Shown here one piece after another: positions 1-25,650 of a DNA stretch of 64,000 bases (the stretch's first letter is position 1; the number at the start of each line of letters is the position of its first letter). A model generated the notes under the pieces. It made no database searches, was not told where the DNA came from, and worked only from the letters and a program-made list of their open reading frames with translations. The stretch is from Acidobacteriota bacterium. Lineage in GTDB: Bacteria > Acidobacteriota > Thermoanaerobaculia > Multivoradales > UBA5704. The stretch lies in assembly GCA_040349255.1 (NCBI GenBank), contig JBEQUE010000144.1, forward strand, positions 15,524 through 79,523, in the 5' to 3' direction. The position numbers and the translations under genes are program-made.

Positions 1-1
1 C

Positions 2-193: not shown

Positions 194-196
194 ACC

Positions 197-2280
<2,084 letters not shown>

Positions 2281-2299
<19 letters not shown>

Positions 2300-4674: not shown

Positions 4675-4691
4675 GGCGGCGGTCTCGCCTC

Positions 4692-9900: not shown

Positions 9901-9968
9901 CAGAGCTCTTGGAAGCGGTATCCATCGATAGTCTGCCAATCGACAGAAATCGGCCTAGTTAGTGTCAT
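6822..9968 (-). CDS. Multidomain defence protein: N-terminal Mrr-like PD-(D/E)xK restriction-endonuclease domain, CHAT protease domain, NACHT-type STAND NTPase, helical C-terminus
   Basis: 1048-aa ORF. REase motif GPDGGVDAIL...AAQFKYK at N-terminus. CHAT: EPWIPWELV, LLHFVGHGG ... LVFLNACWIG. NTPase: Walker A GDPGIGKTAI, Walker B LLFLVDALDEAD. The first ~250 codons (9215-9968) are markedly AT-richer. Confidence 0.85.
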   Translation of the reverse strand: MTLTRPISVDWQTIDGYRFQELCMDLLAVEGFGVQDQGVGPDGGVDAILLQTIMLPDATPSRLRWAAQFKYKQSADATVKPGELGNIVNILARFKVEGFFLITNGRVTHKAYEELRGATSVSHPPYLLSVWTRREIEGRIYKRHEVARRYFPSFTLYGQPTTKVEVTLDLQFAQFSEVERSRLQYALAKFLDIELSDVNIRKVLEGSTKVIIDLPRDSAHALQGAFAKSGIDLNKYGFRHVILKIRQSDVSEGEKALPASVQGAGLDTRGGTRSLPSSSAAPVDLELRVTIGFRDGRTQLHYILHSPVGIDGFSYRGVDGPSFQGRVEEYRSSILDKVRKLGERIDTDDSLLLRGEIRRKLEALGQDLYRELFSGEMQLLYRKIRRSVTTLTIISDEPWIPWELVKPYDAEDPDDVIDDDFLCIQFELTRWLAGNRSPAAEIQVRRLACFTTSSELTRAEEEQGLVTDLARDHSGIEDATVPVASAEEIETILGKGGLDLLHFVGHGGFNPDQPNESALPLEDESFFRAGDLTGALATEIGRNRPLVFLNACWIGQQAWSLTGLGGWADRWVRVCGCGAFLGPAWPVRDSRAFEFARSFYGALAQGETFGRAARIARLALREADADDPAWLTYVIYAHANGRIALGDAPGVREPAEKRAPPEIQKHILDFTPLIRRKTEGYVGRQWLFDALDDFVQKSNSGYIQVLGDPGIGKTAIVARLAQLRRYPLHFNVRAEGITKPSQFLPNLCAQLIRDFDLGYSALPPEASRDPRFLKELLGGISTKLLASGTKLLFLVDALDEADSGAVSKGANTLYLPSDLPPGVFAVVTSRRGQFKLQFTCEGHTIDLQRERENNFADVRLFTQNYALRPGIGAYITAQGLDEATFVDELVKRSEGNFMYLHYVLPEIEKGAYKTRDLTTLPTGLQSYYEDQWERMKELDTQGWFEYKLPVLVGLTVAREPISTGLISDFSGIQDRARVQMALDEWSQFLQPISVEDGDDGPELRYRLYHDSFHDFIKGKDQVKEKGVDLMEANRRVADVLWGDLLSEE
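9131..9162. repeat. ~28-bp direct repeat (GGAGCTTGGCAAGGAG...CTCC), copy 1, inside the REase-CHAT-NACHT gene just downstream (in gene sense) of the low-GC module
   Basis: Near-identical to 10039-10070 by direct reading. Confidence 0.6.
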
Positions 9969-10489: not shown

Positions 10490-10588
10490 AGCGCGTACCT
10501 CCCGGGTTTTCCATCTGTCCGCGTCGATTATCTCATTGATACGCCCGCCTGTCAGTCGAACACGGAGAACGAGACGCGGCCCGATTGA
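10181..10588 (+). pseudogene. Truncated, frameshifted duplicate of the lipoprotein gene 5' end (paralog of 11980-13251)
   Basis: Identical signal/lipobox (MRQPIPTL.LLALPLLAACATSS). A 14-residue stretch differs through a +1/-1 indel pair. The copy diverges after ...GQPL into the boundary motif and terminates. Confidence 0.6.
10504..10550. repeat. ~46-bp boundary motif copy 2 (GGGTTTTCCATCTGTCCGCGTCGATTATCTCATTGATACGCCCGCCT)
   Basis: See 10073-10118. It lies at the junction between the truncated lipoprotein copy and the 3' end of the DUF4157 gene. Confidence 0.5.
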
Positions 10589-11883
10589 CGGATCTGCGCC
10601 GCACGCCGCAACACCTTGGGATCGTGGCGCAGCCGTTCATAGACCCAGGGCTCCTGGTCCCGGAGCCTCCCCTCGCGCGCCCGGCGCTCGAGCTGGATCA
10701 GGAACTCGCCCATGGACTGATAGTAATTTTCATCGTACATCTCGCCCTTCTCGTCCCAGGTGAGCTCCTCTCCGAGAAGCGATCTCTTGAGGAGCGCGGC
10801 GGCGCGGCGGTTGTACGGGTAGGTATCGAACCCCTGCAGCTCGGCGCGCTCCTCCTTCGTGATCGTTCCCAGGATCCGTTTCGCGGAAAGAGCGGCGGCG
10901 CGCGGATTGTCCGGATAACCGTTGTAGCCCTGCAGCTCGGCCTCTTCCTGCCGGGACAGCGGCCCGGCGGCCTGCTTCGCGCGCAGCGCGGCGGCGCGCG
11001 GGTTCTCGCGCGTCCCATCCGGAGACCAGAGGCCGGCGTCGAAGCTGCGGTCCCGCGCCACGAGCCGCGAGAAATGGCCGCGAAGCTCCTCCTGCTCCGC
11101 CGGCGTGATCGTCCCCGCGTCCTGTTTCGCGTAGAGCATGGCGGCGCGCGGGTTGTCGGGGAAGCTCGCGATGCCGCGGAGCTCCGACAGCTCCGGCTTC
11201 GTGATCGTGCCGAGGATCCTCTTCTTCTGAAGCGCGGCGGCGCGCGGGTTGTTCGGATACGCGTTGCGCGCCTGCCGCTCCGCGACCTCTGGCGATGGTG
11301 GCGACGGCCTCTCCTCCACGGCGGGCGCCGGAGCGCCCGGCACCGGATCGCGGGCGATGACCGCAGGATGGAGCGACCCGGCGCCGGACCGCAGGCCCTG
11401 CGCCTCGGCCGGAGACGCGGCGCGAGCCATCCGATGCGCCTGCCGCTCCTGGGCGGAGTCCGGGGAGCCGAGCTGGAGCGGCCCCTCCGGCATGGGCGAC
11501 CCGGACCGCTGCATGACGTGGGACAGCTCGTGGTACAGGCGGTGGCGGCCGGTCTCGGTGTCCGGGGCGTAGCCGCCGCTTCCGAAAACGATGTGAGGAC
11601 CGAGAGTGTAGGCGTTGGCGTGCAGCGCGCGGGCCGACTCCGCCGCGCTCTCGCCGGTGTGGATCCGCACGTTGCTGAAGTCGAATCCGAGCCGCTGCTC
11701 GGCCGTGTCGCGGATCGAAGCGTCCAGCGGTTGACCCGGATGACGCAAAGCCCCCTCCGCGGTGGACGAAAGATCCTCGCCGGAAGCCGTGTCATTCCCC
11801 CGCTGGGAAACGCGCCGGCCGGACGAGGACGGAGAACGCATTCCGGTCGAAAACCCGCGCCGTTCGTGGTCGAACCTGTTCAT
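10552..11883 (-). CDS. DUF4157-type zincin-like metallopeptidase-domain protein with C-terminal tandem ~33-aa repeats
   Basis: N-terminal GQPLDASIRDTAEQRLGFDFSNVRIHTGESAAESARALHANAYTLGPHIVFG...HELSHVMQ (HExxH). Six to seven repeats of the consensus PDNPRAAAL.AKRILGTITKEE.AEL.G. Probable ATG at 11883 with a GGGAGG SD; the track ORF extends to a GTG at 11907. Confidence 0.8.
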   Translation of the reverse strand: MNRFDHERRGFSTGMRSPSSSGRRVSQRGNDTASGEDLSSTAEGALRHPGQPLDASIRDTAEQRLGFDFSNVRIHTGESAAESARALHANAYTLGPHIVFGSGGYAPDTETGRHRLYHELSHVMQRSGSPMPEGPLQLGSPDSAQERQAHRMARAASPAEAQGLRSGAGSLHPAVIARDPVPGAPAPAVEERPSPPSPEVAERQARNAYPNNPRAAALQKKRILGTITKPELSELRGIASFPDNPRAAMLYAKQDAGTITPAEQEELRGHFSRLVARDRSFDAGLWSPDGTRENPRAAALRAKQAAGPLSRQEEAELQGYNGYPDNPRAAALSAKRILGTITKEERAELQGFDTYPYNRRAAALLKRSLLGEELTWDEKGEMYDENYYQSMGEFLIQLERRAREGRLRDQEPWVYERLRHDPKVLRRAAQIRQSGRVSFSVFD

Positions 11884-11916
11884 GCTTGCTCTCCAGCCTC
11901 CCAACACCCCACATCT

Positions 11917-12287
11917 TCAAGATACGTGAGTTCCGGTCCCGAGCCGTCATGATCGGACGGCAGGCGCTATCCTTCCGCCATGCGCCAGCCCATTCCGACG
12001 CTCTCCCTCCTCGCCCTGCCGCTCCTCGCCGCCTGCGCCACCTCTTCGACACCTCCGGCTCCCTCGACGATCACGGCTCCCGCCGCACAGGCCCGGGCGG
12101 AGTCTCCGGATCGGGAGGAAGACGAGTACTCCCGCTACGAGCTGCTCGAACCCGGGTCGGCGCAGTTCCACATCCTCTTCGAGGTCACCGCGACCGAGCC
12201 CGGCGCGACGGTCTACTTCAACCCGATCCGCAAGGGAAGCGCCGCGAGCGACGAGTCGGTGCGCGACCGGGCGACCGGACAGCCTCT
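11917..12287. repeat. ~372-bp direct repeat copy 2 (intact copy, start of the full-length lipoprotein gene)
   Basis: See 10118-10489. Confidence 0.75.
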
Positions 12288-13251
12288 GCCCTTCGAGGAG
12301 GTCACCGGAGAGGAAGCGAGAGCCAGCGGCCTGCCCGACGCCGACCTGTCGATGAGCTACATCCGCATCCACCTGCCGCACCCGGTGCCGGAGGAAGGCG
12401 GGATCCGCCTGCTGATCGAGAAGACCTACAAGGACCCGCAAAGTTATGAGACCAAAGGCGGTGACCAGGACGGGCGCCTCGTCTTCCAGCGCACCCTGGG
12501 CATCCGCCGGAACTCGATCGTCCTGCCGCGGGGTTACGAGCTGACCGCCTGCAACGCGCCGGCCCAGATCCTGTCCGAGCCGGACGGCCGGGTCTCCGTG
12601 AGCTTCATGCACCCTGGACCCGACGCCTTTCCGCTGGTGATCGAAGCCCGCCGGACCGCTCCGACCGGGGCTTCCTCACCGGAAGCAAGCGAAAGACTGT
12701 CCGAACGGGCGCACCAGGACCGCGAGATCGTCTATTTCCTGCAGCAGCCCGAGACCCACGCTTTCGACCTCTACCACGACTACACCGAATCGAGGCCCGG
12801 CGTGGACCGCTATCTGAACGTCGTGCGCGCGGGCAGCACCGCCTCCAATCCCTCGGCGCGGAACCTCGACACCGGAGAGGTCCTCAAGGTCGAGACCCTG
12901 CGCGGCGACGCGCTCCCGAAGAGCGCTGTCGAAGAAGACGAGATTCCGCCGGACGCCGACGTCGTCGTGGCCCACTTCGCCCCGGTCCCGCCGGGAGGCT
13001 CGGTCCGCCTCCGCATCTCGGAGACCTACACCGATCCGAAGAGCTATCGGCTGGAAGGAGACGAGCTCGTCTTCGACCGCACTCTGGGCCGTCCGAGGAA
13101 CGCCGTCGTCCTCCCCGCCGGCTGGCTCCTGACCGCCAGCTCAATCCCCGCCCAGGTCTCCGAGACCGCCGACGGCCGGATCCGGCTGGATTTCACCAAT
13201 CCGCGGCCGGACGAGATTGCGGTGTTGATCAAGGCGCAGCGGCGCGAGTAG
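11980..13251 (+). CDS. Lipoprotein of unknown function with an internally duplicated ~75-aa domain
   Basis: Signal peptide plus lipobox LLAAC. Two similar segments: YKDPQSYETKGG...RLVFQRTLGIRRNSIVLPRGYELTA... and YTDPKSYRLEGDELVFDRTLGRPRNAVVLPAGWLLTA... Confidence 0.8.
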   Translation: MRQPIPTLSLLALPLLAACATSSTPPAPSTITAPAAQARAESPDREEDEYSRYELLEPGSAQFHILFEVTATEPGATVYFNPIRKGSAASDESVRDRATGQPLPFEEVTGEEARASGLPDADLSMSYIRIHLPHPVPEEGGIRLLIEKTYKDPQSYETKGGDQDGRLVFQRTLGIRRNSIVLPRGYELTACNAPAQILSEPDGRVSVSFMHPGPDAFPLVIEARRTAPTGASSPEASERLSERAHQDREIVYFLQQPETHAFDLYHDYTESRPGVDRYLNVVRAGSTASNPSARNLDTGEVLKVETLRGDALPKSAVEEDEIPPDADVVVAHFAPVPPGGSVRLRISETYTDPKSYRLEGDELVFDRTLGRPRNAVVLPAGWLLTASSIPAQVSETADGRIRLDFTNPRPDEIAVLIKAQRRE

Positions 13252-14287: not shown

Positions 14288-14851
14288 TTAGAGGAAGATC
14301 TCGCCGAGAGGGATCTCCAGGCCGGGCAGGAGCGGGCTGGTCAGAATGTCGCCATCCGCCGCGGTCAGCTCCGCGCCCCCCTGGAGGCATTCCCCCATCC
14401 TGCGGAAGATCCGGGCCGCGTTCCGCGTCGGATCGACCATCCAGTACTCCTGGACGCCCAGGATCTCATAGCGCTCCAATTTGAGACCCTCGTCCCGTTT
14501 CCGAGTCGACGGCGAGAGCACCTCGATGACGAGGTCCGGCGCTCCCTGGACGTTCATCTCGGTAAGAATCCTCGCTCTCGCCTGGGAGACGAACAGGAGA
14601 TCCGGCTGGACGACGTCATGCTTGCCGAGCAGAACGTCGGCGGGAGCCACAAAGAGACGGCCCAGTCGATGACGGCGGACGAACGGCGCGATCCAGGAAG
14701 TCAGCTCGACGACGATGCTCTGATGCCACAGGTTCGGAGCCGCCGTCACGAAGTGCTCCCCGTCGAGGATCTCGTGACGGTACCCATCCTCCGGGAACAG
14801 GAGGTAGTCCTCGTAGGTGAGCTTGCGACGGACTGGATCTCGAAGGGCCAT
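14288..14851 (-). CDS. Uma2-family (DUF820) PD-(D/E)xK endonuclease-like protein
   Basis: MALRDPVRRKLTYEDYLLFPEDGYRHEILDGE...PDLVIEVLSPST.R.DEGLKLERY. The start is taken at an internal ATG; the track ORF extends upstream. Confidence 0.7.
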   Translation of the reverse strand: MALRDPVRRKLTYEDYLLFPEDGYRHEILDGEHFVTAAPNLWHQSIVVELTSWIAPFVRRHRLGRLFVAPADVLLGKHDVVQPDLLFVSQARARILTEMNVQGAPDLVIEVLSPSTRKRDEGLKLERYEILGVQEYWMVDPTRNAARIFRRMGECLQGGAELTAADGDILTSPLLPGLEIPLGEIFL

Positions 14852-15021
14852 GGCGACTCCCGTTTGCAGAGCCAGGAAGAGTTTAGCACGGGACACAATC
14901 CTCGGGTCGGAAGAAGTTCCGCCGGAGGATATCTCAGGACTCGCCGTCGTGGAACTCGCGACGAGGCTCGACTGCAATCGAGTCCGCGCTCCTCGAATCC
15001 TCGGACACCTTCTCCCGGAAT

Positions 15022-17424
15022 TCACGCTTTCCGGCGGCAGATAATCTTGTCTCCACTCGTTCCCACGTGATCAAAATACTTGGTTATGATCTCATGGCAA
15101 TGTCGACAACTGGGCCTTATGTCCTCGTGAAGTTCTAGGATGAGGGTATCCACTCTAGGAAGCCAGGAGGCGGAGGTCTCGAGGACCTCGACCTCAGAGC
15201 CTTCGATGTCGAGCTTCAGTATGTCGATGAAAGAGATGCCATACTCCTCCATAAGCCCATCGACAGTGACGGCTGGAACGGTTTGCATAACACTCCTACC
15301 ATCTAGATCACCTTCTACGGTCTGGAATCCCCATGCTCCACTTCCACCATCGATAACCTGGACGCAGGCTTTCTTGCACCAGAGCGCCCCTCTCACTGGG
15401 AATATATTTGGGAAAGGCATCGAATTTCGAACCAGGAGTTGAAAGTTGTGTTCCTCGGGTTCGATCGCGATGATTCGGGCATCGGGATATCGCAGGGCAA
15501 AGTCAACCGATGAAGCACCTATGTTGGCTCCCCCGTCAACAATCACTTTTGGAGGATGTCCGACCTCAAGGATATGAGGCTTCTCGCGGAAGATCTCGCG
15601 ATACACATCGAGATCCGTGGTCTCTGGTCGTATGTGCAGAATGTGACTACCTTCCAGGGCAACCCTTATTGTTGCCTCGTCGAGTTCGGTCCCATTGACA
15701 CTCTCTCCAGTCTCGCCAAACGAAAAATAAGAAGTAGCGGCCAGCCCAAGAAGGCGCTGCCCGACAGGCAGCAAAGAATGGATGTCTTCCCACTTATTTT
15801 CCCATAACGAACCTTGAAAGCCGAGTTCTTTCCAGAGGCGCTCGGCAAAATTGGGCATTATTGGCGCAGAGAGGATGGCCAAGAGCTTCGCCGCGAGCAG
15901 TTCTAGCGCGACGGCTGTCCGCCGCCTTTCATTTTGCGCGATAACTCGAAGCCAGCTTTCCTCGGATTTCGCGAAGCGCCTCGCATCGCGAACGAGCCAA
16001 CCGAGGACGCTTGCAGCGCACTGAGGCGAGAACGTCCTCGCCTCGTAGGCTTTGCTCGCCTGGGCAGTTAGCATGGTTAGTCGTTCTGCGAATCGCAAGT
16101 GCTCTTCCGCCCAACTACCAGCCCCAGGCACCCGTTCCTCGAACTCTCTAGCAGCCCGAACCGCCAATTCCCTGAGCCAAGCCTGCCATTCACGGATCAG
16201 TTCCCGGTCCACGTCCGCGGCGAGCTCAGCCAAACTGAAGTTGGTCCTCTCCACCTCGGGATATGTTGTCGCCATGTGAAAGCGTAGGGAGTCTGCGGGC
16301 ACCCTGCTCAGCAGATGCTGTCCCCAGATTGCATGCTGCCGGCTGGTTGAGAACTTGGAATGATCAAGAAGACGGAACTCGTTCATGAGCAGCGCCGAAG
16401 GAAGACGGATTTGCGAGTCAAAAGCCATCAGCAACGCGGGCACCAGAACTGCGTAGTAAAAAGCATTGTCGAATCCGAAACATTGAATAGCAAGGGAATC
16501 CCCATTCTTCCAGAATTGCTCCCAGCGGCCATCGAGATGCTGGGCATAGGTGAGATAGCGCGCGGCTTCGTCGCACCACGTATAGACTGTCTGGCCCTCG
16601 AATCCTGGAATTGCAATCGGCACCCCCCAGTTATCGTAATGAGAAACAGCAAAATTCCAGAAACCAACCTGTAGAGCCTGCTCGCAGAAAGATCTCAGAT
16701 TAGAGCTCATCGCCACCTTGCTCCAATATTCCTGCAGCCTGCCGCTATACTGGTCAAGCGGGAAGTAGAGGCGCTTCATAGCCCTGAAGGACGGAGGAGC
16801 GCCGCACTGGGCGCAGACCGGATCCAGAAGATCTACACAGCGGTTGGGCATACCGCAACTCTCACATCCGCTTCCCGTGGTACGGCTTCCACAATAGGGG
16901 CAGTGTCCAGAGATATAGTTCTCATAAAGCTGGCGACGACACGGTTCACAATAGGTAGTCGGGTCCACGCGGGAAATGAGCAATCCACGGGCATACAGGT
17001 TACCTAGAAAATCTTGTACGGTCGGTACGTAGAAGAGCGATGAATTCGGCCGAATAAACTGGTCGACGTCAATCCGCGCCCCCCTGAGCGTACTCGCTAT
17101 ACTTTCCGCCATTTGGTCTGCAACCTGCTGAGGGGAGACGCCAGCCTCCATTGCATGGATCTTGACGTCACTCTGATTGTCATCTGTACCAGTGAAAAAG
17201 TGAACCTCTGCGCCACGAAGCCGGAGGTAGCGCGACTGAATGTCTCCTGCAAGGTAGGGCCCGGAGAGATGGCCCACATGCAGATCGCCATTCGGGGTTG
17301 GGGGCGCTGCCATGACAAGTACGCGAAGAGAAGCATAGCGCAACGTATCCCGGCAGTCGCTCGCCAGGCCCTCGACCGCTCCATAACTAGAAATTATCTG
17401 CTTCTTCTCCCTGGGTTCTTCCAT
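15022..17424 (-). CDS. Methionyl-tRNA-synthetase-like class I aaRS catalytic domain (HIGH/KMSKS-like, Zn knuckles) fused to a C-terminal FkbM-family methyltransferase domain
   Basis: PPTPNGDLHVGHLSGPYLAGDIQSRYLRLRGAEVHFFTGTDDNQ (MetRS-like HIGH region). CEPC...CPYC...CESCG...CAQCG knuckles. LLDHSKFSTSRQ (KMSKS-like). C-terminus VVDGGANIGASSVDFALRYPDARIIAIEPEEHNFQLL (FkbM MT motif). ATG at 17424 with GGAGAG SD. Low-GC gene. Confidence 0.8.
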   Translation of the reverse strand: MEEPREKKQIISSYGAVEGLASDCRDTLRYASLRVLVMAAPPTPNGDLHVGHLSGPYLAGDIQSRYLRLRGAEVHFFTGTDDNQSDVKIHAMEAGVSPQQVADQMAESIASTLRGARIDVDQFIRPNSSLFYVPTVQDFLGNLYARGLLISRVDPTTYCEPCRRQLYENYISGHCPYCGSRTTGSGCESCGMPNRCVDLLDPVCAQCGAPPSFRAMKRLYFPLDQYSGRLQEYWSKVAMSSNLRSFCEQALQVGFWNFAVSHYDNWGVPIAIPGFEGQTVYTWCDEAARYLTYAQHLDGRWEQFWKNGDSLAIQCFGFDNAFYYAVLVPALLMAFDSQIRLPSALLMNEFRLLDHSKFSTSRQHAIWGQHLLSRVPADSLRFHMATTYPEVERTNFSLAELAADVDRELIREWQAWLRELAVRAAREFEERVPGAGSWAEEHLRFAERLTMLTAQASKAYEARTFSPQCAASVLGWLVRDARRFAKSEESWLRVIAQNERRRTAVALELLAAKLLAILSAPIMPNFAERLWKELGFQGSLWENKWEDIHSLLPVGQRLLGLAATSYFSFGETGESVNGTELDEATIRVALEGSHILHIRPETTDLDVYREIFREKPHILEVGHPPKVIVDGGANIGASSVDFALRYPDARIIAIEPEEHNFQLLVRNSMPFPNIFPVRGALWCKKACVQVIDGGSGAWGFQTVEGDLDGRSVMQTVPAVTVDGLMEEYGISFIDILKLDIEGSEVEVLETSASWLPRVDTLILELHEDIRPSCRHCHEIITKYFDHVGTSGDKIICRRKA

Positions 17425-17454
17425 ACACACTCTCCATGGCTGACTTAAATTAGC
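17425..17454. promoter_or_regulatory. 30-bp divergent intergenic spacer between the aaRS-like/FkbM gene and the CHAT-SIR2-NACHT gene. Promoters must overlap the coding regions.
   Basis: ATG 17424 (minus) and ATG 17455 (plus). Confidence 0.3.
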
Positions 17455-20400
17455 ATGCCTGACTATAACATACCGAAGACCTCGCCGAGAAGAGTCCTCG
17501 TTCTGTCGACAAACCCTGAGGATACCGAAAGGCTAGCACTTGAACGGGAAACCCGTCAAATTGAGCGTGCATTAGCGCATCGCGAAGGAAGTTTCACGGT
17601 GCGACACGCTATGGCTGCTCACCTTGAAGATCTCGAGGACAGCCTATTCGATTTTAAGCCGCAGTACGTTCATTTCTGCGGCCATGGCTTAAAAGGAGGC
17701 CGAGGTCTTGCCTTCCAGGATGACTCGGGAAGGACGAGTCCCGTTACCACGCGGCAGCTTAAGGAGTTGTTCTCTATCTTCAAAACGAACATCAGCTGCG
17801 TATTTCTCAATTGCTGCTTTTCGCGCCCCCAGGCAGAAGTGATTTCCGCTCATGTCCCCTACGTGATTGGAACAAGTGAGGCGTTTGACGATGAGTTGGC
17901 CGTTGTCTTCGCTTCAAAGTTCTACAAGGCGATTGGTCGTGGAAAAACGGTCCCATTTGCGTTCAAGTTCGCCCGCGCTGTTACCGCCGACAATTTGGAT
18001 TCCCTGATTCCGGTCCTAGTCCGAGGGCGGCGCAAAAATAAAACAAACCCTGGAGATAGCGTCGGCTCTTCTGGCACCAGCCAGTGGAAGGCAGGAAATT
18101 TAGGGCAACCCAAGGAGTTCCGCTCGTTCGATTTAGAAGCAAAGGAAGAACAGGCTTCGTTACACCTCAATACCTCGCAAAAAGAACAGGATCAGGATGC
18201 TCGGCGCGCTTCCCTGAGCCGCCTCTGGAATCGATTAGAACAAAAGCGCGAAGCCGTCATTTTTCTGGGTTCTGCTGCCTGCGCGGAGGGCTTCAAGGAG
18301 GGCAAGCCCTACCCCAGCTTGGATGCCATCGCCAAGCGAATTCTCGATGATGAAGGTCGAAGCACTGGCAATATGACCGACGTTCGCAAGGAGCTGAGAA
18401 ATACATTGCGGATGTGGACTGAAGGGGAGGGAGATCTTTCCGATTTTCTCCGAAAATATATTTCAGGGCAGCCCGGCGCTGCCCATCACTATCTTGCAGC
18501 CTTGGCTCTAGGCCTTTTCCCGGAGTTCAATCTCCTTCTGTTTGTAACGGCCGGATTCGATGACTTGATGGAGGAAGCATTCGTCAGTCTGCTAAGAGGT
18601 GAAACCCGACCCAAGATAAGGCATTACAGCATTGGGCATCAAGAAGAAACAGTTCCTAGAATTTTCGAGGAAGTCTCCGGTCAAGTGCGCAAGGGAGTGC
18701 CTGTTATACTCAAACTATTTGGCGATCTGGACGCAGAGAGTCCCCTGCTCTACCCAAAGACCAAAATTCGTCAGAAGCTTGGGAGCAGTATTCAAGGCTG
18801 GTTCAGCCGTCCCGTGCTCTTCATCGATTGCGGGCCCGAGGATAAAGCCTTTGAAGATTTGTTCTTTAAGACAGAAAAGCGTGGCCCCTTGTTTGTTATT
18901 GGTAAGAACCTTGCACAATATCGAAACGATCCTACTATTCATCATGTCGCCATATCGCTCATGGAATTCGGCCTAGAGTTCCTCGATATGGTGAGATCTA
19001 AAAATCAGGACCTTCTTAAGCGGGTAGAAGATCTCCTGCATAATGTAGATCCTCTCGCGCTCTATCCTGATTGTGAATCTATCATGGCACGCGCCGCTAT
19101 CGCCTCTCGCGCTTCGTTACTACGGGTGGAAGAGCGACTGCCGCGTAGCCGTTCCAATGAGGAAGGCCACGCCTTTGTGCCCATCGCTCGAATTGACACG
19201 CAACCTGATTTCGCGGCCTTCTTGCGGGACGGTAGGCCTCTCCTTGCATTAATCGGTGATTCCGGTTCCGGTAAGTCTACTCTCTTCTACCAAGTCCACC
19301 AAGCCGCGGGTGCTTTCATTTCGATCTTTTATGACATCCATCAACTTCAGGCCACGCGCACGCTTGCTGGTAGGCTTGCCCACGACTTCCTCTGTGACGA
19401 ACGCAATTTCGTCGACCTTGTTAGAGTACTCGACAAGGCATTGAAATTTGAGCAGCGAAAGCTTGTCATTTTTATTGATGGACTCAACGAAAGCCTTGAT
19501 CTGAAGCCTTCCACCTTGCGCTTTGAAATCGAGGATCTTGGCGCGAAACTGCCAGGAACAATCAAGATTGCCTATTCGTGCCGCAGAGTCTATTGGGACA
19601 ATTTCATCCGCAATACATCGCCGCTTTCCAAAGAACTATACTTTAATTCAAAAGAAATAGTTCTAGAGCACTTTTCTCCAAGAGAGGCGGAAAGCGCCTT
19701 CAAGTCATACCAGGAACTTTACGGATTCCTCGGTAACTATGCTTCATTGAGCTCCGAATTCAAGTTGAGAATTAAGGACCCGCTGATGTTGCGTATGCTC
19801 GCAGAGGGTTACGCGGGGAAGAAGCTTCCTGATTTCGCGCCTGCAGTGCTGATCTTCGATACTTACCATAAACGTTTCCGGCAGCGCTTCAAAGGCACTG
19901 TTGTACCGGCTTTCCTCGATGCGCTAGTGGCCGCGAAGGTAAATGAGACCGAGGCGGAACTCGCCTCCGATCAGTTCATCACTGAAGATGTGCGAACGCA
20001 CCCGAAACTCAGTCTTCTGATTCAACAGCAGATGTTGAATGCGCATCGGGGTGGGGACCCACTCCTGCTCCTCGAAGATGAAGGGATACTGACAGCTATC
20101 GATGACGATAGCACATCCTATCGATTCGCCTACGACCGGTTTTTTGAATATCTACTCGGAAAATCACTTTCAAAACTTCTGACTACCGGTTCTAGAGAGA
20201 GGTTCCGAGAGCGTCTTGAGAAGCAGATACGTAGATTAAGCCCCTTTCATTTTTCCTTCCTGCAAGCGCTGAAGTCGGAGGTCATTCGTCTCAACATTCT
20301 CGAGCCAAGCGGGCCCTGCTCCTTTTACGACCCTGAACTTGTGAGAGGACTTCTTGAGAACGAGGATGCGGGGATCGTTGCGTTCACGAAGGACCTGTTA

Positions 20401-21909
20401 AGAGAGTTGATGTTCGAGGGGGGGCGGGACCTCACGTCAGTGATAGCGCAGGTCTTTCAGGATGAGACGGCTAATCAGCTCTTGATGCTGGACATAGCCC
20501 CTGATTCGCCGCGCACGCTCCCCTTGGTTGTGAGAGGGTTGATGCAGGGTGCGAGAGAGATCGCTCGTCGCTGCTGCCATATCCTTGTCAACTTCTTATC
20601 CGAGCCGGAATCCCGGCGCCTCATCGAGGATGAACTCTTTCTCGAGCTTCGCAGGCCGCTTCAGGTCGCGACAATAGGTGGAATGATTTACTATTCAGCA
20701 GCCTTGGCCGGAGAAGCCGATCGTAGGGGTGCTGACCCTCTACCGATAATCCTAGATTTCTGGCGCCGAGCATGGGGAGTCGCAGAAAGGGACGAAAGGG
20801 ATGTCGAGGCGCTGGTCGGCGGCCTAGTGAGAATAGTACACACTGAGGCTGGCCGATTCTTCGGTGATGACAGCAGGAACGCTATGGACTACATATGGAC
20901 AGGCATGCCTCGTGAGATCAAGGATGTTTCCCTTCAGATGGTTCCATTTATTGTCGATTCTGACCGAAGGCTCCCCCCTGACATTCAGGAGATTCTCCTC
21001 TTCTTCGGATCGACCATACGCGATTGGTCAACTCGTCGCGATCCTGCTGCCTATGTAGAGAAGGACTATAAAATAGAGTTCACGATGGCACAGTGGATCC
21101 TGGTGCAGAGGGCGAGGCACCAATACAGCGACGTGAAGGAGACTCTTGAAAGCTTCGTCGCCACAGGTTATTCACGAAGCATTGAGGTGGCGCTTAGCAA
21201 TATGGAGTCCTGTTGCCTCCATATGCTCCTGAATGACAAAGCGCTTCTTAATGACGCTTATCAGACCATGCTTAAGTGGATGCCGATTTACCAGAGTGAT
21301 GAGCAAGGATTTTACGGGCACTTGGCCAAGGAGGACCCCTTCTCGCGCAACGAGTGCCCGATAGATATGGTTGGTCGAATTTCTCTCCTGGATGAGTTTT
21401 CTCCCAAGGAGGGGCGAATCCCGTTTCTTGAGCCTTGGTTCACTAGCCTGGACAGGAGAGACCGCCTGTACGCCCTAATCTGCGCCAGGAAATTGTGGCG
21501 TCATCAACCCGTAAAGATGCTCCAAACCCTCGAAGTCGTTTGTAGCTCGGATGACGAAACCGTCGCCTCTTGGCTGGACGTCATACTCAAGGAAATCTAC
21601 ATGGTTCTCCCGCGTCTCGTGGAGGAGTTCTTTCGGCGTACCGGCATGGAGCCGGCCCGAGCCCAAAGAATCAAGACTCGGTCGGACGTGGTGGACCCTA
21701 GCGCTGTTGTCCACCCTGGAGAGCCCCTCTACAAAGCGCTCTTCCTCGGCCCCCGAGAGCGCCGCAAGAAATTAGCTGAATGGTACCTTCATCTTCTTCA
21801 GTCCGACAGCTTAGAGGATTACTGCGACGCCCTTGCACGATGGTTCATTTCGAAGATCCACAACATGGATACGGGGAACCATGGGTTGAGCGCCGACCTT
21901 GATCCTTGA
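17455..21909 (+). CDS. Giant CHAT-like caspase domain, SIR2-like domain, NACHT-type STAND NTPase and long helical-repeat C-terminus protein (1484 aa)
   Basis: N-terminus RVLVLSTNPEDTERL...YVHFCGHG...CVFLNCCFS (His/Cys dyad). SIR2_2-like motifs AVIFLGSAACAEG, LLFVTAGFDDLMEEAF, ILKLFGDLD. Walker A LLALIGDSGSGKSTLF, Walker B KLVIFIDGLNESLD. Low-GC gene. Confidence 0.85.
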   Translation: MPDYNIPKTSPRRVLVLSTNPEDTERLALERETRQIERALAHREGSFTVRHAMAAHLEDLEDSLFDFKPQYVHFCGHGLKGGRGLAFQDDSGRTSPVTTRQLKELFSIFKTNISCVFLNCCFSRPQAEVISAHVPYVIGTSEAFDDELAVVFASKFYKAIGRGKTVPFAFKFARAVTADNLDSLIPVLVRGRRKNKTNPGDSVGSSGTSQWKAGNLGQPKEFRSFDLEAKEEQASLHLNTSQKEQDQDARRASLSRLWNRLEQKREAVIFLGSAACAEGFKEGKPYPSLDAIAKRILDDEGRSTGNMTDVRKELRNTLRMWTEGEGDLSDFLRKYISGQPGAAHHYLAALALGLFPEFNLLLFVTAGFDDLMEEAFVSLLRGETRPKIRHYSIGHQEETVPRIFEEVSGQVRKGVPVILKLFGDLDAESPLLYPKTKIRQKLGSSIQGWFSRPVLFIDCGPEDKAFEDLFFKTEKRGPLFVIGKNLAQYRNDPTIHHVAISLMEFGLEFLDMVRSKNQDLLKRVEDLLHNVDPLALYPDCESIMARAAIASRASLLRVEERLPRSRSNEEGHAFVPIARIDTQPDFAAFLRDGRPLLALIGDSGSGKSTLFYQVHQAAGAFISIFYDIHQLQATRTLAGRLAHDFLCDERNFVDLVRVLDKALKFEQRKLVIFIDGLNESLDLKPSTLRFEIEDLGAKLPGTIKIAYSCRRVYWDNFIRNTSPLSKELYFNSKEIVLEHFSPREAESAFKSYQELYGFLGNYASLSSEFKLRIKDPLMLRMLAEGYAGKKLPDFAPAVLIFDTYHKRFRQRFKGTVVPAFLDALVAAKVNETEAELASDQFITEDVRTHPKLSLLIQQQMLNAHRGGDPLLLLEDEGILTAIDDDSTSYRFAYDRFFEYLLGKSLSKLLTTGSRERFRERLEKQIRRLSPFHFSFLQALKSEVIRLNILEPSGPCSFYDPELVRGLLENEDAGIVAFTKDLLRELMFEGGRDLTSVIAQVFQDETANQLLMLDIAPDSPRTLPLVVRGLMQGAREIARRCCHILVNFLSEPESRRLIEDELFLELRRPLQVATIGGMIYYSAALAGEADRRGADPLPIILDFWRRAWGVAERDERDVEALVGGLVRIVHTEAGRFFGDDSRNAMDYIWTGMPREIKDVSLQMVPFIVDSDRRLPPDIQEILLFFGSTIRDWSTRRDPAAYVEKDYKIEFTMAQWILVQRARHQYSDVKETLESFVATGYSRSIEVALSNMESCCLHMLLNDKALLNDAYQTMLKWMPIYQSDEQGFYGHLAKEDPFSRNECPIDMVGRISLLDEFSPKEGRIPFLEPWFTSLDRRDRLYALICARKLWRHQPVKMLQTLEVVCSSDDETVASWLDVILKEIYMVLPRLVEEFFRRTGMEPARAQRIKTRSDVVDPSAVVHPGEPLYKALFLGPRERRKKLAEWYLHLLQSDSLEDYCDALARWFISKIHNMDTGNHGLSADLDP

Positions 21910-22144
21910 GTATCCGCCATCTTTCAATAGCCGAGGCATTGCTACTCCCGCCGAGGTGATAAACCAAGCTGACCGCTTCACTGCATGTTGCCCTGACTCC
22001 AGCTGCCCGAATGGCCAGATTCCACAGATCATCATAGCTAGCATTAGCCATAAGGTCGTAGAATCCATACAGTTCAATCGGTCGGTCGTGCGTGACAACC
22101 ACGAAGGAAATCAGGAACTTCGATCTCATCGGGTTGGCCTCTCG

Positions 22145-22867
22145 TCAACTGTGTAATGCGCGAGGGGCTTTGACTAGATGTTTGTGGTCGTTTTCGCCAG
22201 GGCCAAAGTATTCCCGGTTGTTGCAGCGGCGGCATATCTCTGAAGCCTCCTGCCTTTTGCCTTCTTGGAGCAGGTTACGGAGGTGGACGAATCGCGGGGA
22301 AAACCAAATCTCCTCAAGAGTCTGAACCGATATATTTCCCATGACATGGCTTCGCTCGGCGTCGTCACAGCAGAGCAGGACATCCCCGCCAACTGTAATT
22401 ATCAACATGTCAGTCGGAGCATAACATGGCAAGAACAGTGGCTCCTCCGTTGTACCCAGGAGCCCACCTCGATTCACAAGAACAAGATCCGAGGGGAACT
22501 GGATCGTCTGATAGGGCCTTTCCGGCATCGGCTCATAATCATGGCGTGTCACAATGAAGTGATCTATGCCGGCCTCCCTTAGGGAGGTGTAACGCTCATC
22601 AAGGAGAAGGTCTCCGTTGGTGAATAAAACCTGAAATGCATTTGGAAGACGGGCGGCCGCCTTCCTTACCAAAGTTTCCAGATCGCGACGCAAGAGCGGC
22701 TCATTGAACAAGTGATACGATAGGTTCCCTTGGAAATTGACCCGCTCCAACTCGGAAACAATACGATCGAACAACGATTCGCTCATAAAGAGATCGGTCT
22801 TGGGCGCGGGTAATACCGACACGGGGCAATAGCTGCACCGGCGATTGCACCGAGCATTGACCTCCAT
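22145..22867 (-). CDS. Small radical SAM enzyme with SPASM/twitch-like C-terminal Cys cluster (BtrN-like size)
   Basis: CNRRCSYCP (CxxxCxxC) near the N-terminus. C-terminal LLCCDD...CRRCNN. The start is taken at an internal Met (MEVNARCNRRC), which leaves a 5-nt gap after the DegT stop; the track ORF extends to 22966. Confidence 0.7.
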   Translation of the reverse strand: MEVNARCNRRCSYCPVSVLPAPKTDLFMSESLFDRIVSELERVNFQGNLSYHLFNEPLLRRDLETLVRKAAARLPNAFQVLFTNGDLLLDERYTSLREAGIDHFIVTRHDYEPMPERPYQTIQFPSDLVLVNRGGLLGTTEEPLFLPCYAPTDMLIITVGGDVLLCCDDAERSHVMGNISVQTLEEIWFSPRFVHLRNLLQEGKRQEASEICRRCNNREYFGPGENDHKHLVKAPRALHS

Positions 22868-22872
22868 TTCGA

Positions 22873-24225
22873 CTACGCTGAACCAACTTCCCTGGGGCTC
22901 GACAGGTTGTCCTCTAAACACGAGTTTGCCTCCGACGGCACGCTGGCGTTTTCCAATTGGTGCCAATAGTGCATGACCTTTTCTACAGCCCTGACGATAT
23001 CTTCAATCTCCGCGAGGCCCCCAAGAAGTGCATTGTGGGGGATGGCGATATAGCGACGGCGGGCCGCAACTGCCGTTGGTAGGTGGAAACGGGAAGGTTC
23101 GAAAGGGCTCGGCCCAGTCGCCTGATGGCGCCGCGGAGATCTCATGGGATTGAACAGTTGATTCTGGTTCAATGGATCATAGAGAGGCTGAATCGTCAAG
23201 CCTAACTCCGCCGTCAATGCGGCGGCAACGGTCTCTATGGGCACGCAGCCGAACCGCTCAAGTTGAAACTCCAGGCAGTAGCGGTAGAAGGTAGGCCGTC
23301 CCGCCGCCTCGGGTTTGTGGAGGGGGCGGACTCCCGATATCTCGCGGAGCCGCGAAGTCAGATGTGACGCGTTCTCTGTCCGAATGGCGTTCTCCTCGTC
23401 TAGAAATCGTAGACGATCGTGGAGAATGGCCGCATGGAACTCTGAAAGGCAATGGTTGTGTCCCTGGACATCTCCTGCGGGTTCAAGCTCCAGGCCTCTC
23501 GGTATTCGGCGCGCTACGTAGCGTCGGCCATCGGCCCGGAACTGCTGCAAGAGGCTGTACAGATTGGCATCCTTGGTAATCACGGCTCCGCCTTCGCCGC
23601 TGGCCAGGACTTTGCTCTGTTGCATGCTGAACACACCTGCAGCGCCGAAGGTTCCTACCTTTCTACCCTGCCAAGAAGCACCATGAGCATGCGAACAATC
23701 CTCGATCAATGGGATTCCGGTCGTGCTCGACAACTCTTGGAATGACGCGAGGTCGGCAACTGTGCAGTAGAGATGGACCAGCATAATAGCCGCCGTCGCT
23801 CTGGTAATTGCGTTCCGTGCCGCGTTAACGGACATACAGAGCGTATCAGGATCAACGTCGACCAGTATGGGGATACCTCCCAAGCGCGCTACAGAGGAGC
23901 CGCAGGCAACCCAAGTGAGGCCAGGAACGAGAACCTCCCGTCCCGGACCGATACCGAGGGCTTCGAGCGCGATTGTAAGGGCTGACGAACCGTTGGCTGT
24001 CGGAACACAGTAGGGCACTTCGTGGAAGGCGGCGAACGACTCTGCGAATTGTCGTTCGAAGGGAAGATCCTCCAAGCATGGCCCGCTGATCGTCCAGCGC
24101 TGCGAGCGAAGAACTTTCAAGAGAGCTTCTTCCGTGGATTGCTCCGCGCGCGGCCAGTTAGGCCAGGAAAGGCTTCTGACAGGAATTCCGCCGAGGATCG
24201 CCAAGAGAGACGAGGAAGCAGTCAT
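22873..24225 (-). CDS. DegT/DnrJ/EryC1/StrS-family PLP-dependent aminotransferase
   Basis: FSMQQSKVLASGEGGAVIT (PLP-Lys motif). The family also contains scyllo-inosose aminotransferases. ATGA overlap with the upstream gene. Confidence 0.85.
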   Translation of the reverse strand: MTASSSLLAILGGIPVRSLSWPNWPRAEQSTEEALLKVLRSQRWTISGPCLEDLPFERQFAESFAAFHEVPYCVPTANGSSALTIALEALGIGPGREVLVPGLTWVACGSSVARLGGIPILVDVDPDTLCMSVNAARNAITRATAAIMLVHLYCTVADLASFQELSSTTGIPLIEDCSHAHGASWQGRKVGTFGAAGVFSMQQSKVLASGEGGAVITKDANLYSLLQQFRADGRRYVARRIPRGLELEPAGDVQGHNHCLSEFHAAILHDRLRFLDEENAIRTENASHLTSRLREISGVRPLHKPEAAGRPTFYRYCLEFQLERFGCVPIETVAAALTAELGLTIQPLYDPLNQNQLFNPMRSPRRHQATGPSPFEPSRFHLPTAVAARRRYIAIPHNALLGGLAEIEDIVRAVEKVMHYWHQLENASVPSEANSCLEDNLSSPREVGSA

Positions 24226-25379
24226 CGTTGCAGTGTCAAGAATTCAATAAGTTTTCGGAACTGCTCTGGCACGGAGTGCTCACAGGAGGCTCCTTCGCCG
24301 ACAATAGGATCCTTGAAAAAATATGAAGCGGCATCCAATGAGCCGTGACAACCCGCTTCCGCAGCGTAGGCGACCACTCGTACAAGATCAATTATTGCAG
24401 GCGCTGCCAGAATTGAGTCCTGTCCTAGCCAATTGATCTTCAATTGCATTGGGACACCCAGGAAGCCGCGAAAATCAATGTTGTCCCACGCTTCCTTGGA
24501 GTCACCGCGCGGGGGATAATAATGGATATGGACTTGATGACCCGTCCCGTGCGCGCCTCCGGGCACATAGCCGAGGATGGAGCTCAGGCATTTGCTCTTC
24601 GAGATGATCTTCGTCTCACCGGCTCCAGGCTTGGACAAGGAGAGACCATCGTCATTACCGAGCAGGTTTGTACTGAACCACCCATCGATCCGAAGGTTCT
24701 TGTCCCTGAATGCCGGCGCGAGAGTAGTCTTGATGAAGGTCTGACCGGTTTTGCCATCGCGGCCAGCATAGATTAAACCCTTCTCTTCGGCGAGTTCCCG
24801 CAGGGGAGTAATTTCGGCCGGGTTCGGAGTGAAGTTAATAAAATGGGCTCGCGCCTCAATAGCGAGACGGAAGTAGATTTGGCTAACCGAATACGAGGCA
24901 CCCAACTCCAATTCATCGAGATTCCTCCAATCGATCCGCTCGTCAGCGTCCTGCTTGGGCACGGGCTCCGTCGGGCAAAGATTGACCAGTATCACGTGTC
25001 GCCAATCTTCTCTCCGCCGCTTCCTGTTCAGGTGGGCCGCTTCCCGTCGGATCCAATCGCCTATTGATTCTCTTTGGAGCTCAATTCCCTTTCTTGGCTT
25101 GATCCTTTGCAGGCGTTGCTTCGCCTTCGAGAGTACCTCCGGGGGGCATATGCGGTGTCGCTTACAGGAAGCGTACAAAGTGTCCTGATTCATGTCCCAG
25201 CCATGGATGGACATGGAGGAGAATGGCAAAAGCCGGCAACCGGATGCACGCACCAGAGGCGACTCCGTCGCCACGCCGAAACCGGCAATTTCTTCAGGTG
25301 GCATCGAAAGCCCAGCTGCCAACGTGCTACCGACCGCCCCTGCCAGTCCAGCAACCATGATAAGAGCTGGTTCTGCCAT
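24222..25379 (-). CDS. myo-Inositol-1-phosphate synthase (Ino1/MIPS) family protein
   Basis: IMVAGLAGAVGSTL (Rossmann), FINFTPNP, GRDGKTGQT, STNLLGNDDG (matches the MIPS SYNHLGNNDG motif). First gene of the MIPS-DegT-rSAM operon. Confidence 0.75.
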   Translation of the reverse strand: MAEPALIMVAGLAGAVGSTLAAGLSMPPEEIAGFGVATESPLVRASGCRLLPFSSMSIHGWDMNQDTLYASCKRHRICPPEVLSKAKQRLQRIKPRKGIELQRESIGDWIRREAAHLNRKRRREDWRHVILVNLCPTEPVPKQDADERIDWRNLDELELGASYSVSQIYFRLAIEARAHFINFTPNPAEITPLRELAEEKGLIYAGRDGKTGQTFIKTTLAPAFRDKNLRIDGWFSTNLLGNDDGLSLSKPGAGETKIISKSKCLSSILGYVPGGAHGTGHQVHIHYYPPRGDSKEAWDNIDFRGFLGVPMQLKINWLGQDSILAAPAIIDLVRVVAYAAEAGCHGSLDAASYFFKDPIVGEGASCEHSVPEQFRKLIEFLTLQR

Positions 25380-25650
25380 TCAGTTCTCCATACAGATTTC
25401 GGAAGAAGCAGATAATTTCTAGTTATCCGCTATCTCGAAGGTCCACTAGTAGAATATTCCTGCTGGGCGTTCAGTGATTATAGTGCCATTGTAAGTGTAT
25501 TCTGGCGATAGTCAACACATAATCCTTGTTCCGAACAAATATAAATCTTCGCGCTATAGCAACCGGCTGATCCCGTCGCATCGCATTATTTGTACCTTCC
25601 CTAGTAACCGCGTGTTCCTCAAGCGTGCCTGCGAACTTAGTTGTGACTGT
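25380..25650 (-). promoter_or_regulatory. AT-rich upstream/promoter region of the MIPS-DegT-rSAM operon and boundary of the low-GC island
   Basis: AT-rich non-coding stretch immediately 5' of the ATG at 25379. GC rises sharply after ~25650. Confidence 0.3.

Follow-up and report, generated by a model that had tools for sequence, protein, structure and literature searches.

The 64,000-nt stretch of Acidobacteriota contig JBEQUE010000144.1 described here (the window, to which coordinates refer unless a locus numbered L0xx is named) carries an operon of three enzyme genes and, facing it, the gene of a STAND NTPase, the two being bracketed by a pair of short inverted repeats. The GC content is about 70% across the window, with an island of low GC (50-56%) at about 14-26 kb that holds these genes. 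Three minus-strand open reading frames (ORFs), all in one direction, fill positions 22145-25379 and encode a homologue of inositol-phosphate synthase (MIPS), a DegT-family aminotransferase dependent on pyridoxal phosphate (PLP), and a radical S-adenosylmethionine (SAM) enzyme predicted to be a BtrN-like dehydrogenase (Table 1). The MIPS stop codon overlaps the aminotransferase start in an ATGA at 24222-24225, the aminotransferase stop TAG occupies 22873-22875, and the open frame of the radical SAM gene spans 22145-22966. Because homologue alignments extend back as far as 22894 and the gene call on an identical Logan contig gives a product of 258 residues, the GTG at 22921 is the likely start of this last gene. 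That start makes it overlap the aminotransferase gene by 49 nt, and the alternative ATG at 22867 would lie 5 nt past the aminotransferase stop.

Downstream of the radical SAM gene lies the relic of a family 2 glycosyltransferase (GT2) gene, which fuses residues 7-21 (93% identity) to residues 213-265 (64%) of an intact 286-residue GT2 from the related locus L009. The fusion is an in-frame internal deletion that removed about 190 codons, and in related loci a GT2 gene follows the radical SAM gene at this place. The relic and the STAND gene, which runs in the opposite direction, overlap by 65 nt at their 3' ends.

Table 1. Positions, strands and sizes of the module's genes, sites and candidate promoter in the window (aa, amino acids; nt, nucleotides)
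Feature	Position	Strand	Size	Remarks
MIPS homologue	24222-25379	-	385 aa	Pfam Inos-1-P_synth 2.9e-32, NAD_binding_5 3.6e-28
DegT-family PLP aminotransferase	22873-24225	-	450 aa	Pfam DegT 2.2e-77
BtrN-like twitch radical SAM dehydrogenase (predicted)	22145-22921	-	258 aa	from GTG 22921; Pfam radical SAM and SPASM/twitch
GT2 glycosyltransferase relic	21845-22129	-	94 aa	ORF identified by tblastn against the L009 GT2
CHAT/SIR2-like/STAND NTPase gene	17455-21909	+	1484 aa	convergent with the operon
Right repeat copy	25402-25427	-		includes GATAACTAGAAATTATC, the palindromic site of 17 bp; 22 nt ahead of the MIPS ATG
Left repeat copy with 17-bp site	17382-17407	+		47 nt upstream of the STAND ATG; within codons 6-14 of the MetRS-like gene, other strand
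Candidate promoter TTGACT-16-TACAAT	25488-25515	-		sigma-70 consensus match; outside the segment, reading in towards MIPS
MetRS-like/FkbM methyltransferase fusion	15022-17430	-		coding part 15022-17424; outside the repeat, with its first 14 codons crossing it
Uma2-family nuclease-like gene	14288-15025	-		Pfam Uma2 1.9e-34; PADLOC candidate PDC-S03 2.5e-33

The operon and the STAND gene form one conserved genetic unit

The comparison took in all clade loci whose flanks could be used, namely the window, L002/3, L004, L005/6, L007/8/12, L009, L010, L013, L015, L017, L019 and L020, together with the partial loci L095-L097. Gene order is constant among them and runs from MIPS through the aminotransferase and the BtrN-like radical SAM enzyme to a variable set of tailoring genes, followed by the convergent gene of a SIR2-like/P-loop STAND protein of 1230-1666 residues. 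In a tblastn census, the aminotransferase and the STAND gene were found at every one of the 12 clade loci with enough flanking sequence and the radical SAM gene at 11 of them, whereas 74 control loci around ordinary MIPS genes contained neither the radical SAM gene (0/74) nor the STAND gene (0/74). The exception is L002, where deletion has left only the last 35 codons of the radical SAM gene (12480-12584), and L003 is in the same condition. Since 11 independent loci repeat the three families in one order, and the twelfth has lost one of them, the arrangement is not due to chance.

The STAND proteins of these loci are full-length orthologues of the window protein at 38-57% identity, and their pairwise identities correlate with those of the aminotransferase (r 0.93), MIPS (0.86) and the radical SAM enzyme (0.82), at least as tightly as the enzymes correlate with one another. 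When 5.8 billion proteins were searched with a STAND profile, only eight full-length members came back, six of which lie on contigs size-matched to contigs of the MIPS clade. The layout is the same in a Halarcobacter (Campylobacterota) locus, L013, at which STAND identity drops to 23%. In that locus MIPS is fused to a serine hydroxymethyltransferase-like PLP domain (807 residues; L013 17243-19666, minus strand), and a TIR protein of the Cap12/Pycsar type, whose C-terminal half of about 120 residues has no domain assignment, is encoded between MIPS and the aminotransferase (L013 16498-17241, minus strand). A different fusion, of MIPS with the aminotransferase and at least 557 residues long, occurs at L097 4770-7416 (P0052). 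Operon and convergent STAND gene are one conserved genetic unit, present in at least two phyla. A scan of a genome collection gave three loci only, and a scan of viral contigs with the STAND profile found nothing. One of these three, L014 (Binatia), was excluded as belonging to a different STAND family, for only its NTPase domain matches and it has no cassette.

The MIPS homologue contains the motif STNLLGNDDG, and its best structural matches are PDB 7nwr (1.4e-46) and 1u1i (3.8e-46), the Bacteroides and Archaeoglobus enzymes being the closest. Residues N238, L240, D244, K257, K261, K295, D321 and K356 of the window protein align with N255, L257, D261, K274, K278, K306, D332 and K367 of the A. 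fulgidus enzyme, positions that we take to be catalytic from the mutant studies behind entries 3qvs-3qw2; all eight are invariant within the clade and common to ordinary MIPS. The clade itself comprises about 55 metagenomic proteins that match the window protein at 297 bits or more and at least 45% identity, whereas ordinary MIPS reach about 40% and no more than 274 bits among the 5.8 billion proteins searched. Thirteen fixed differences separate the clade from ordinary MIPS, none of them at a catalytic position. Against the only NCBIfam MIPS equivalog the window protein scores 41.6 where the cut-off is 638, which does not place it among the orthologues of housekeeping MIPS. By these comparisons the MIPS homologue appears to be a dedicated, module-specific paralogue that should work like a MIPS.

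The DegT protein matches L-glutamine:2-deoxy-scyllo-inosose aminotransferases most closely (5w70 at 1e-109, 5w71 at 1.9e-92 and BtrS/BtrR, 2c7t, at 3.1e-92), whereas sugar-nucleotide aminotransferases match it at 1e-35 or weaker and it reaches no NCBIfam sugar-nucleotide equivalog cut-off. The PLP lysine is present in the motif FSMQQSKVLASGEGG, and by its matches the protein belongs to the cyclitol (2-deoxy-scyllo-inosose/BtrS/RbmB) branch of the family. The radical SAM protein aligns over its full length with BtrN (4m7t; E 2.7e-45, 158 bits), with MoaA as the runner-up structure (E 0.002) and the model for anaerobic sulfatase maturases (anSME) at only 18.9 bits. Its CX3CX2C motif, CNRRCSYC, aligns with CNRTCWYC of BtrN, and all seven cysteines of BtrN are matched, the three of this motif and four near the C-terminus. 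BtrN is the dehydrogenase of 2-deoxy-scyllo-inosamine and carries one Cys4 auxiliary cluster (PMC10337720). With 258 residues and four C-terminal cysteines, the window protein fits the same twitch architecture with a single auxiliary cluster. Among PADLOC models, nothing matched MIPS or the DegT protein, and the radical SAM protein gave only a weak viperin-core match.

A preliminary description of this stretch had reported three co-directional genes with overlapping stop and start codons, naming a MIPS homologue with the STNLLGNDDG motif, an aminotransferase of the DegT/StrS family, to which scyllo-inosose aminotransferases such as StsC belong, a small radical SAM protein of the size and architecture of BtrN, and a GT2-like fragment as a possible trace of a glycosyltransferase. 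ORFs and Pfam matches bear out the three genes and the ATGA between the first two; MIPS has both Pfam domains and keeps every catalytic residue, and the aminotransferase and radical SAM assignments hold at the E-values above. The trace is real and belongs to an internally deleted glycosyltransferase. That description had also named a grouping of the radical SAM enzyme with sulfatase or peptide maturases, or of the DegT protein with sugar-nucleotide aminotransferases, as results that would speak against its assignments. Neither grouping is found, and it is well supported by the homologies that the three genes constitute a genuine aminocyclitol core, corresponding to the BtrS/BtrN half of the 2-deoxystreptamine route with MIPS in place of 2-deoxy-scyllo-inosose (DOI) synthase. 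What does not survive is the framing of this core as a free-standing antibiotic or mycothiol-like cluster, as the enzymes are half of a module whose other half is the STAND gene.

The STAND protein begins with a CHAT protease domain that matches the SAVED-CHAT type III CRISPR protease 8tl0 at 6.6e-18 and retains the two conserved dyad motifs, VHFxGHG with the His and FLNCC with the Cys. Its P-loop NTPase has AAA_16/NACHT matches, with Walker A GDSGSGKST and Walker B IDGLNES invariant in the alignment, and its C-terminus consists of about 580 helical residues. The NTPase region resembles Avs2, with PADLOC matches to 2.7e-14 that cover this region only; there is also a partial match to the PADLOC chat model, and the Halarcobacter member matches nothing in PADLOC. 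Forms of about 1240 residues lack the CHAT domain. Among the loci with such forms, L004, L005, L017 and L096 have a gene of its own for a SIR2-like-CHAT protein close by; none was detected in L010 or L019. In the SIR2-like domain, the segment 'ilklFGdL' aligns with 'iikfHGdf' of the NADase KomC, in which this histidine, His146, was mutated to give the deposited inactive variants H146N and H146A, and the TTNYD asparagine is glycine in proteins of the window type. Because the catalytic histidine is replaced by phenylalanine, this domain is unlikely to be a canonical NADase, and it may only bind a ligand. The alternative that the STAND protein is a transcription regulator of the LAL/MalT type was rejected, as no DNA-binding domain was found.

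Inverted sites, segment orientation and promoter placement

A perfect inverted repeat of 25 nt, ATAACTAGAAATTATCTGCTTCTTC, occurs at 17383-17407 and 25402-25426, where none is expected by chance, and brackets the STAND gene and the operon over 8044 bp in total. In each of the 12 loci, the longest word common to the regions upstream of MIPS and of the STAND gene is a 17-bp palindrome, (G/C)ATAAC-N5-(G/A)TTAT(C/G). A degenerate 16-mer made from it finds exactly two inverted copies in every complete locus, one in every partial locus and a single chance hit in the 74 controls. Within a locus, identity between the two copies runs past the palindrome to 25-38 nt. The 17-bp site resembles the inner arms of Xer/dif sites, and a gene for a XerC/D-like tyrosine recombinase adjoins the module in L002, L004, L005, L007/L012, L009, L013, L017, L020, L096 and L097. 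This recombinase is XerC/XerD-like at 4.9e-74 and scores below the equivalog cut-off, and is thus regarded as a paralogue. In L097 the 17-bp site shares bases with the recombinase stop codon, and 4 nt separate it from the start of the MIPS-aminotransferase fusion.

Contigs from several data sets end at these sites. L003 (in three samples), L008 and L015 run from one repeat copy to the other, L020 and L011 terminate at a site, and in L010 the STAND end continues beyond the site and covers the initial 21 nt of the same flank that adjoins MIPS. Because repeats of 17-25 nt are by themselves too short to break assemblies, the contig ends are best read as reflecting both orientations, and site-bounded contigs of this kind look like the signature of an assembly graph that holds the two. 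Comparison of the window with L095 places a change of synteny at the same point: homology on the side of the neighbouring methionyl-tRNA synthetase-like (MetRS-like) gene exists only from the site outward and homology on the MIPS side only up to the site, so that the MetRS-like gene abuts the STAND gene in the window and MIPS in L095. Between close relatives, furthermore, the promoter-bearing flank described below lies on alternate sides (L010 against L004 and L019). From this comparison of assemblies, it is well supported that the segment between the two sites has inverted at them. The MetRS-like gene itself crosses the left site, with its start codon and first five codons (17408-17424) inside the segment and codons 6-14 in the repeat, and inversion would therefore change its N-terminus, which is MEEPREKKQIISSY in the window but MRIISNY in L095. 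Only 30 bp separate the divergent start codons of the STAND and MetRS-like genes.

The placement of candidate promoters suggests what such an inversion might do. At 10/12, the candidate upstream of MIPS (Table 1) is the top sigma-70 match between 14000 and 26600 and the sole match of at least 10/12 in either 300-nt outer flank of the window; in L007 a TTGACT occupies the corresponding position and is followed by a similar sequence. Across the loci, a candidate of at least 10/12 occurs in exactly one flank in six loci and never in both, and this near-consensus element sits 15-60 nt outside one site. The window and L007 carry it on the MIPS side, as does L010 when judged by eye; L004, L005, L017 and L019 carry it on the STAND side. 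Spacers between site and start codon measure 19-60 nt in most loci, ribosome-binding site included, with longer STAND-side spacers of 74-121 nt in L002, L009 and L015. Short spacers leave no room for a promoter, so transcription must enter from outside the segment. The convergent units overlap at their 3' ends, and in the window no terminator-like site was found between them. Inversion would then decide which unit faces the outside promoter and is transcribed, and in its present orientation the window would have the aminocyclitol operon ON and the STAND gene OFF. Since there is no promoter room inside and a strong match in one outer flank only, we infer an orientation switch in which inversion selects the transcribed unit.

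Proposed pathway, tailoring genes and neighbours

The gene content of the operon suggests a pathway from glucose-6-phosphate through inositol phosphate, inositol and inosose to an inosamine or diamine, followed by variable decoration. The MIPS-like enzyme would cyclise glucose-6-phosphate to inositol phosphate, from which a phosphatase, encoded by the host in the case of the window and by a gene of their own in related loci, would release myo-inositol. The BtrN-like radical SAM enzyme would oxidise a ring hydroxyl to the ketone, and the BtrS/RbmB-like aminotransferase would convert the ketone to an amine, giving a product of the scyllo-inosamine type or, after a second round, a streptamine-like diamine. 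The step from inositol phosphate to inositol is supported by a gene of the Inositol_P monophosphatase family inside the L096 operon; in L020 a histidine phosphatase gene lies between operon and STAND gene, on the opposite strand. Direct hand-over of an inosose phosphate from MIPS to the aminotransferase was rejected on the reasoning that the bound NADH would not be recycled. DOI synthase is absent from the window module and from all related loci, MIPS taking its position. As a separate observation, a 130-residue ORF within the L004 operon (12009-12401) is a duplicated MIPS C-terminal fragment, 39% identical to residues 294-381.

Variable tailoring enzymes would then build an aminoglycoside-like molecule on this core. 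Related loci encode GT2 proteins, NodU-type carbamoyltransferases, Fem-like Acetyltransf_6 proteins, an ATP-grasp ligase and SAM-dependent methyltransferases including FkbM (stand-alone in L004, L009 and L096), together with APH(2'')-like kinases in six related loci only and a second BtrN paralogue in L005, L017 and L019. To judge from these families, the set is the typical repertoire of an aminoglycoside pathway. Tailoring sets turn over quickly between close relatives. In L004 and L096, two Aminicenantes-like contigs (flanks 1-6600), the element occupies the same chromosomal place after genes for LpxK, KdtA and an SSF transporter; L004 carries methyltransferase, Fem-like and carbamoyltransferase genes there and L096 those for the inositol monophosphatase, GT2 and FkbM, which indicates fast cassette turnover at a fixed site.

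With its GT2 gene deleted, the window would retain only the MetRS-like/FkbM fusion as a tailoring gene. The synthetase part of this protein has the motifs HVGH and KFSTS, its FkbM part is 53% identical to the stand-alone methyltransferase of L009, and a counterpart that is 74% identical lies directly beside MIPS in the sister locus L095. The MetRS-like domain is part of an extensive family of paralogues, which mostly carry a fused Cupin_2 domain at the C-terminus and in 112 of 120 cases have KFSTS as the sequence of the KMSKS loop. Because of the L095 counterpart beside MIPS and the membership of its MetRS-like part in this family, the fusion appears to be accessory to the module rather than a synthetase with a housekeeping role. 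The preliminary description had suggested that a ligase/methyltransferase gene of this kind could decorate the amine, and the L095 fusion together with the recurrent FkbM genes lends support to that suggestion. Members of the MetRS-like family (P0124-P0240), which carry the annotation "class I tRNA ligase family protein", are common in Acidobacteriota/Thermoanaerobaculia and occur in Pendulispora as well. None of the mycothiol genes MshA, MshB, CysRS-like MshC and MshD is present, the synthetase-like gene of the window being MetRS-like.

Beyond the fusion, the Uma2-family gene possibly belongs to the same island as the module. A Uma2 (PDC-S03) gene adjoins the module in two loci, the window and L002 (20244-20792, minus strand), with 65% mutual identity, and PDDEXK_3 genes lie near the module in L004, L005 and L096. 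The window holds further genes of conflict type: an nSTAND1 NTPase gene followed by a WD40 beta-propeller ORF (547-6524, plus strand), a 1048-residue Mrr_cat-CHAT-NACHT protein (6822-9968, minus strand) in a second low-GC stretch at 4-10 kb, and an eCIS-core-domain protein (10552-11907, minus strand). An Rfam scan of the window gave no match, and a search of the window for tRNA genes found none.

Possible function and comparison with known systems

With confidence only slightly better than even, we favour a reading in which the locus is a mobile invertible module that combines an aminocyclitol core with a STAND protein between Xer/dif-like sites, expresses either one or the other and serves in conflict. 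Such a phase-variable conflict or anti-phage module would alternate a chemical arm with an Avs-like protein arm, and from the kinds of genes involved we infer that its biological role would lie in conflict with phages or competitors. The context is consistent with this role, in that the CHAT domain is nearest to SAVED-CHAT 8tl0, the NTPase is like that of Avs2, a TIR effector sits in the L013 operon and the genes occupy a low-GC island; aminoglycosides inhibit phages, which fits the chemical arm. A bolder form of the proposal, in which a Xer recombinase would drive an immune toggle that switches a lineage between an aminoglycoside-like aminocyclitol and an Avs-like STAND protein, the arms having co-evolved and become inseparable across phyla, is one that we hold tentatively and short of even confidence. 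In a stronger version still, the molecule made by cells in one state would be sensed by, or needed for, the STAND protein in cells of the other state.

Several observations weigh against the favoured reading. The promoters are consensus matches only, and L002, L009, L013 and L020 have no match of at least 10/12 in either flank. No recombinase of the module's family was found in the 64-kb window, whose copy may be frozen. Decay is visible in some copies: in the window the core of the GT2 gene is missing, and L002/L003 have lost the radical SAM gene with the STAND gene kept intact. No exporter and no rRNA-methylase resistance gene was found in any module. The enzyme trio is without a PADLOC match beyond the weak one given above and the STAND protein has partial ones only, and the SIR2-like domain is without its catalytic histidine, with phenylalanine there in 9/9 sequences examined. 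Finally, it would be unusual for two constantly linked partners to be expressed in alternation, and such alternation also speaks against their joint action in one cell.

Joint action would nevertheless be in keeping with the strict linkage and the co-divergence of the genes. The product could act on the STAND and SIR2-like-CHAT/TIR proteins as ligand, cofactor or signal, for instance by binding the His-less SIR2-like domain in the manner of the cyclic-oligoadenylate-activated SAVED-CHAT, either within one cell or between sister cells in opposite states. The uniform phenylalanine at the catalytic position suggests binding in place of catalysis, the CHAT domain is most like that of ligand-activated SAVED-CHAT, the L013 operon includes a TIR effector of the Cap12/Pycsar type, and the lack of an exporter in any module points the same way. 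However, the one-sided promoter and the convergent, overlapping layout predict no co-expression in one cell, a multi-step pathway with a radical SAM enzyme would make a slow infection signal, closely related STAND proteins are accompanied by widely differing tailoring genes, and the STAND gene of L002/L003 is intact after the loss of the radical SAM gene. On balance we consider joint action fairly unlikely. The inverted sites could also mark a cassette similar to dif modules that carries two independent cargoes, with inversion a by-product of no regulatory role and each unit expressed separately. Inversely oriented Xer-type sites next to a Xer-like recombinase are what such a cassette would have, contig breaks at the sites are also expected if the unit occupies several contexts, and several loci lack a recognisable promoter on either side. 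Yet the short spacers on both sides in most loci leave no room for internal promoters, the promoter flank alternates in close relatives (L010 versus L004 and L019), and two cargo families are kept across phyla where everything between them is exchanged, which makes independence of the cargoes improbable.

The sites themselves admit another explanation, namely that the paired 17-bp palindromes are operators of a shared transcription factor, as a palindrome just upstream of both start codons in every locus might suggest. No conserved regulator gene is found in the module, however, and an operator would not account for the break of L095 synteny at the site, for contigs that end at sites in at least five data sets, for copies within a locus that stay identical beyond the palindrome (25-38 nt), or for the adjoining Xer-like recombinase. 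We regard operators in place of recombination sites as very unlikely, while noting that the two roles are not mutually exclusive. The framing of the preliminary description, an ordinary aminoglycoside-like antibiotic cluster, beside which the STAND gene would be an unrelated neighbour in a defence-rich region, draws on the aminoglycoside-pathway counterparts of all core and tailoring enzymes and on the other, unrelated STAND genes of the window. It is contradicted by the linkage, with a co-diverging full-length STAND orthologue at 12/12 clade loci against 0/74 controls, by the position of the STAND gene within the same repeat-bounded segment and by its retention in a different phylum, and can be given hardly any weight.

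The nearest chemical relative is the 2-deoxystreptamine core of butirosin and ribostamycin (BtrC, BtrS/RbmB, BtrN), to which the aminotransferase and the radical SAM enzyme, a twitch protein with seven cysteines, are homologous and whose logic would be alike, a ring hydroxyl being oxidised and the ketone then transaminated. That core uses a dehydroquinate-synthase-like DOI synthase, whereas the module uses a MIPS homologue, so its ring should keep the 2-hydroxyl and be inositol-derived. The module also differs in having no resistance or export genes and in its hosts, which are uncultured Acidobacteriota, Campylobacterota and others instead of Bacillus and actinomycetes. The streptidine/bluensidine, actinamine and hygromycin A routes start from inositol phosphate and employ StsC-type inosose transamination, APH-family kinases and carbamoylation; they oxidise with NAD-dependent inositol dehydrogenases. 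In the module, by contrast, the sole candidate oxidase is of the BtrN radical SAM type, and MIPS is a dedicated clade paralogue within the operon. If confirmed, this would be a third route to an aminocyclitol core, combining MIPS ring formation with a BtrN/BtrS pair, and, given the fast-changing tailoring sets, a source of new aminoglycoside-like chemistry in uncultured, anaerobe-rich lineages.

The STAND protein is similar to the Avs/NLR-like STANDs in its P-loop NTPase, N-terminal effector (CHAT), long helical C-terminus and location in a mobile low-GC island. It differs in having no full-length match to any defined Avs family and in a SIR2-like domain without the catalytic histidine. It also differs in its obligatory pairing with a biosynthetic operon, for which, to our knowledge, there is no parallel among Avs proteins. 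Lanthipeptide clusters in defence islands that protect against phage (bioRxiv 10.1101/2024.06.26.600839; review PMC12360287) are a precedent for natural-product genes in such islands, although their chemistry is peptide-based and no obligatory STAND or inversion switch has been described for them. If confirmed, the module would tie small-molecule biosynthesis genetically to an NLR-like STAND protein, with a bearing on how widely chemical anti-phage defence is spread and how it is integrated with protein immunity.

Invertible segments read from a fixed outside promoter are familiar from the phage Mu G and P1 C segments, whose invertases Gin and Cin are serine recombinases, and hsdS shufflons are phase-variable defence loci inverted by tyrosine recombinases. 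The module is like these in its two convergent units, short inverted repeats near the starts, outside promoter and adjacent recombinase. It differs from Mu G and P1 C in that its alternatives would be wholly different functions and not variants of one protein, and in that its recombinase is Xer-like (tyrosine). The pdif or 'dif modules' of Acinetobacter plasmids are gene modules between inversely oriented XerC/XerD-type sites found in varied contexts and orientations; compared with them, the present module has a dedicated Xer-like paralogue alongside, a two-unit conflict cargo in place of resistance genes and the core ATAAC-N5-(G/A)TTAT. Full-text literature searches did not find described either the combination of MIPS, BtrN and BtrS or the pairing of an aminocyclitol operon with a STAND gene in an invertible segment flanked by Xer sites; a general review that came up in them has nothing on such a module. 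Each component is thus of a known kind and the combination apparently new, with a substantial chance that it represents a new type of immune module. The switch, if confirmed, would be of unusual design, with an outside promoter serving a Xer-site-flanked segment of two different convergent units, and because sites, recombinase and both locked orientations can be specified to the base, the model is directly testable.

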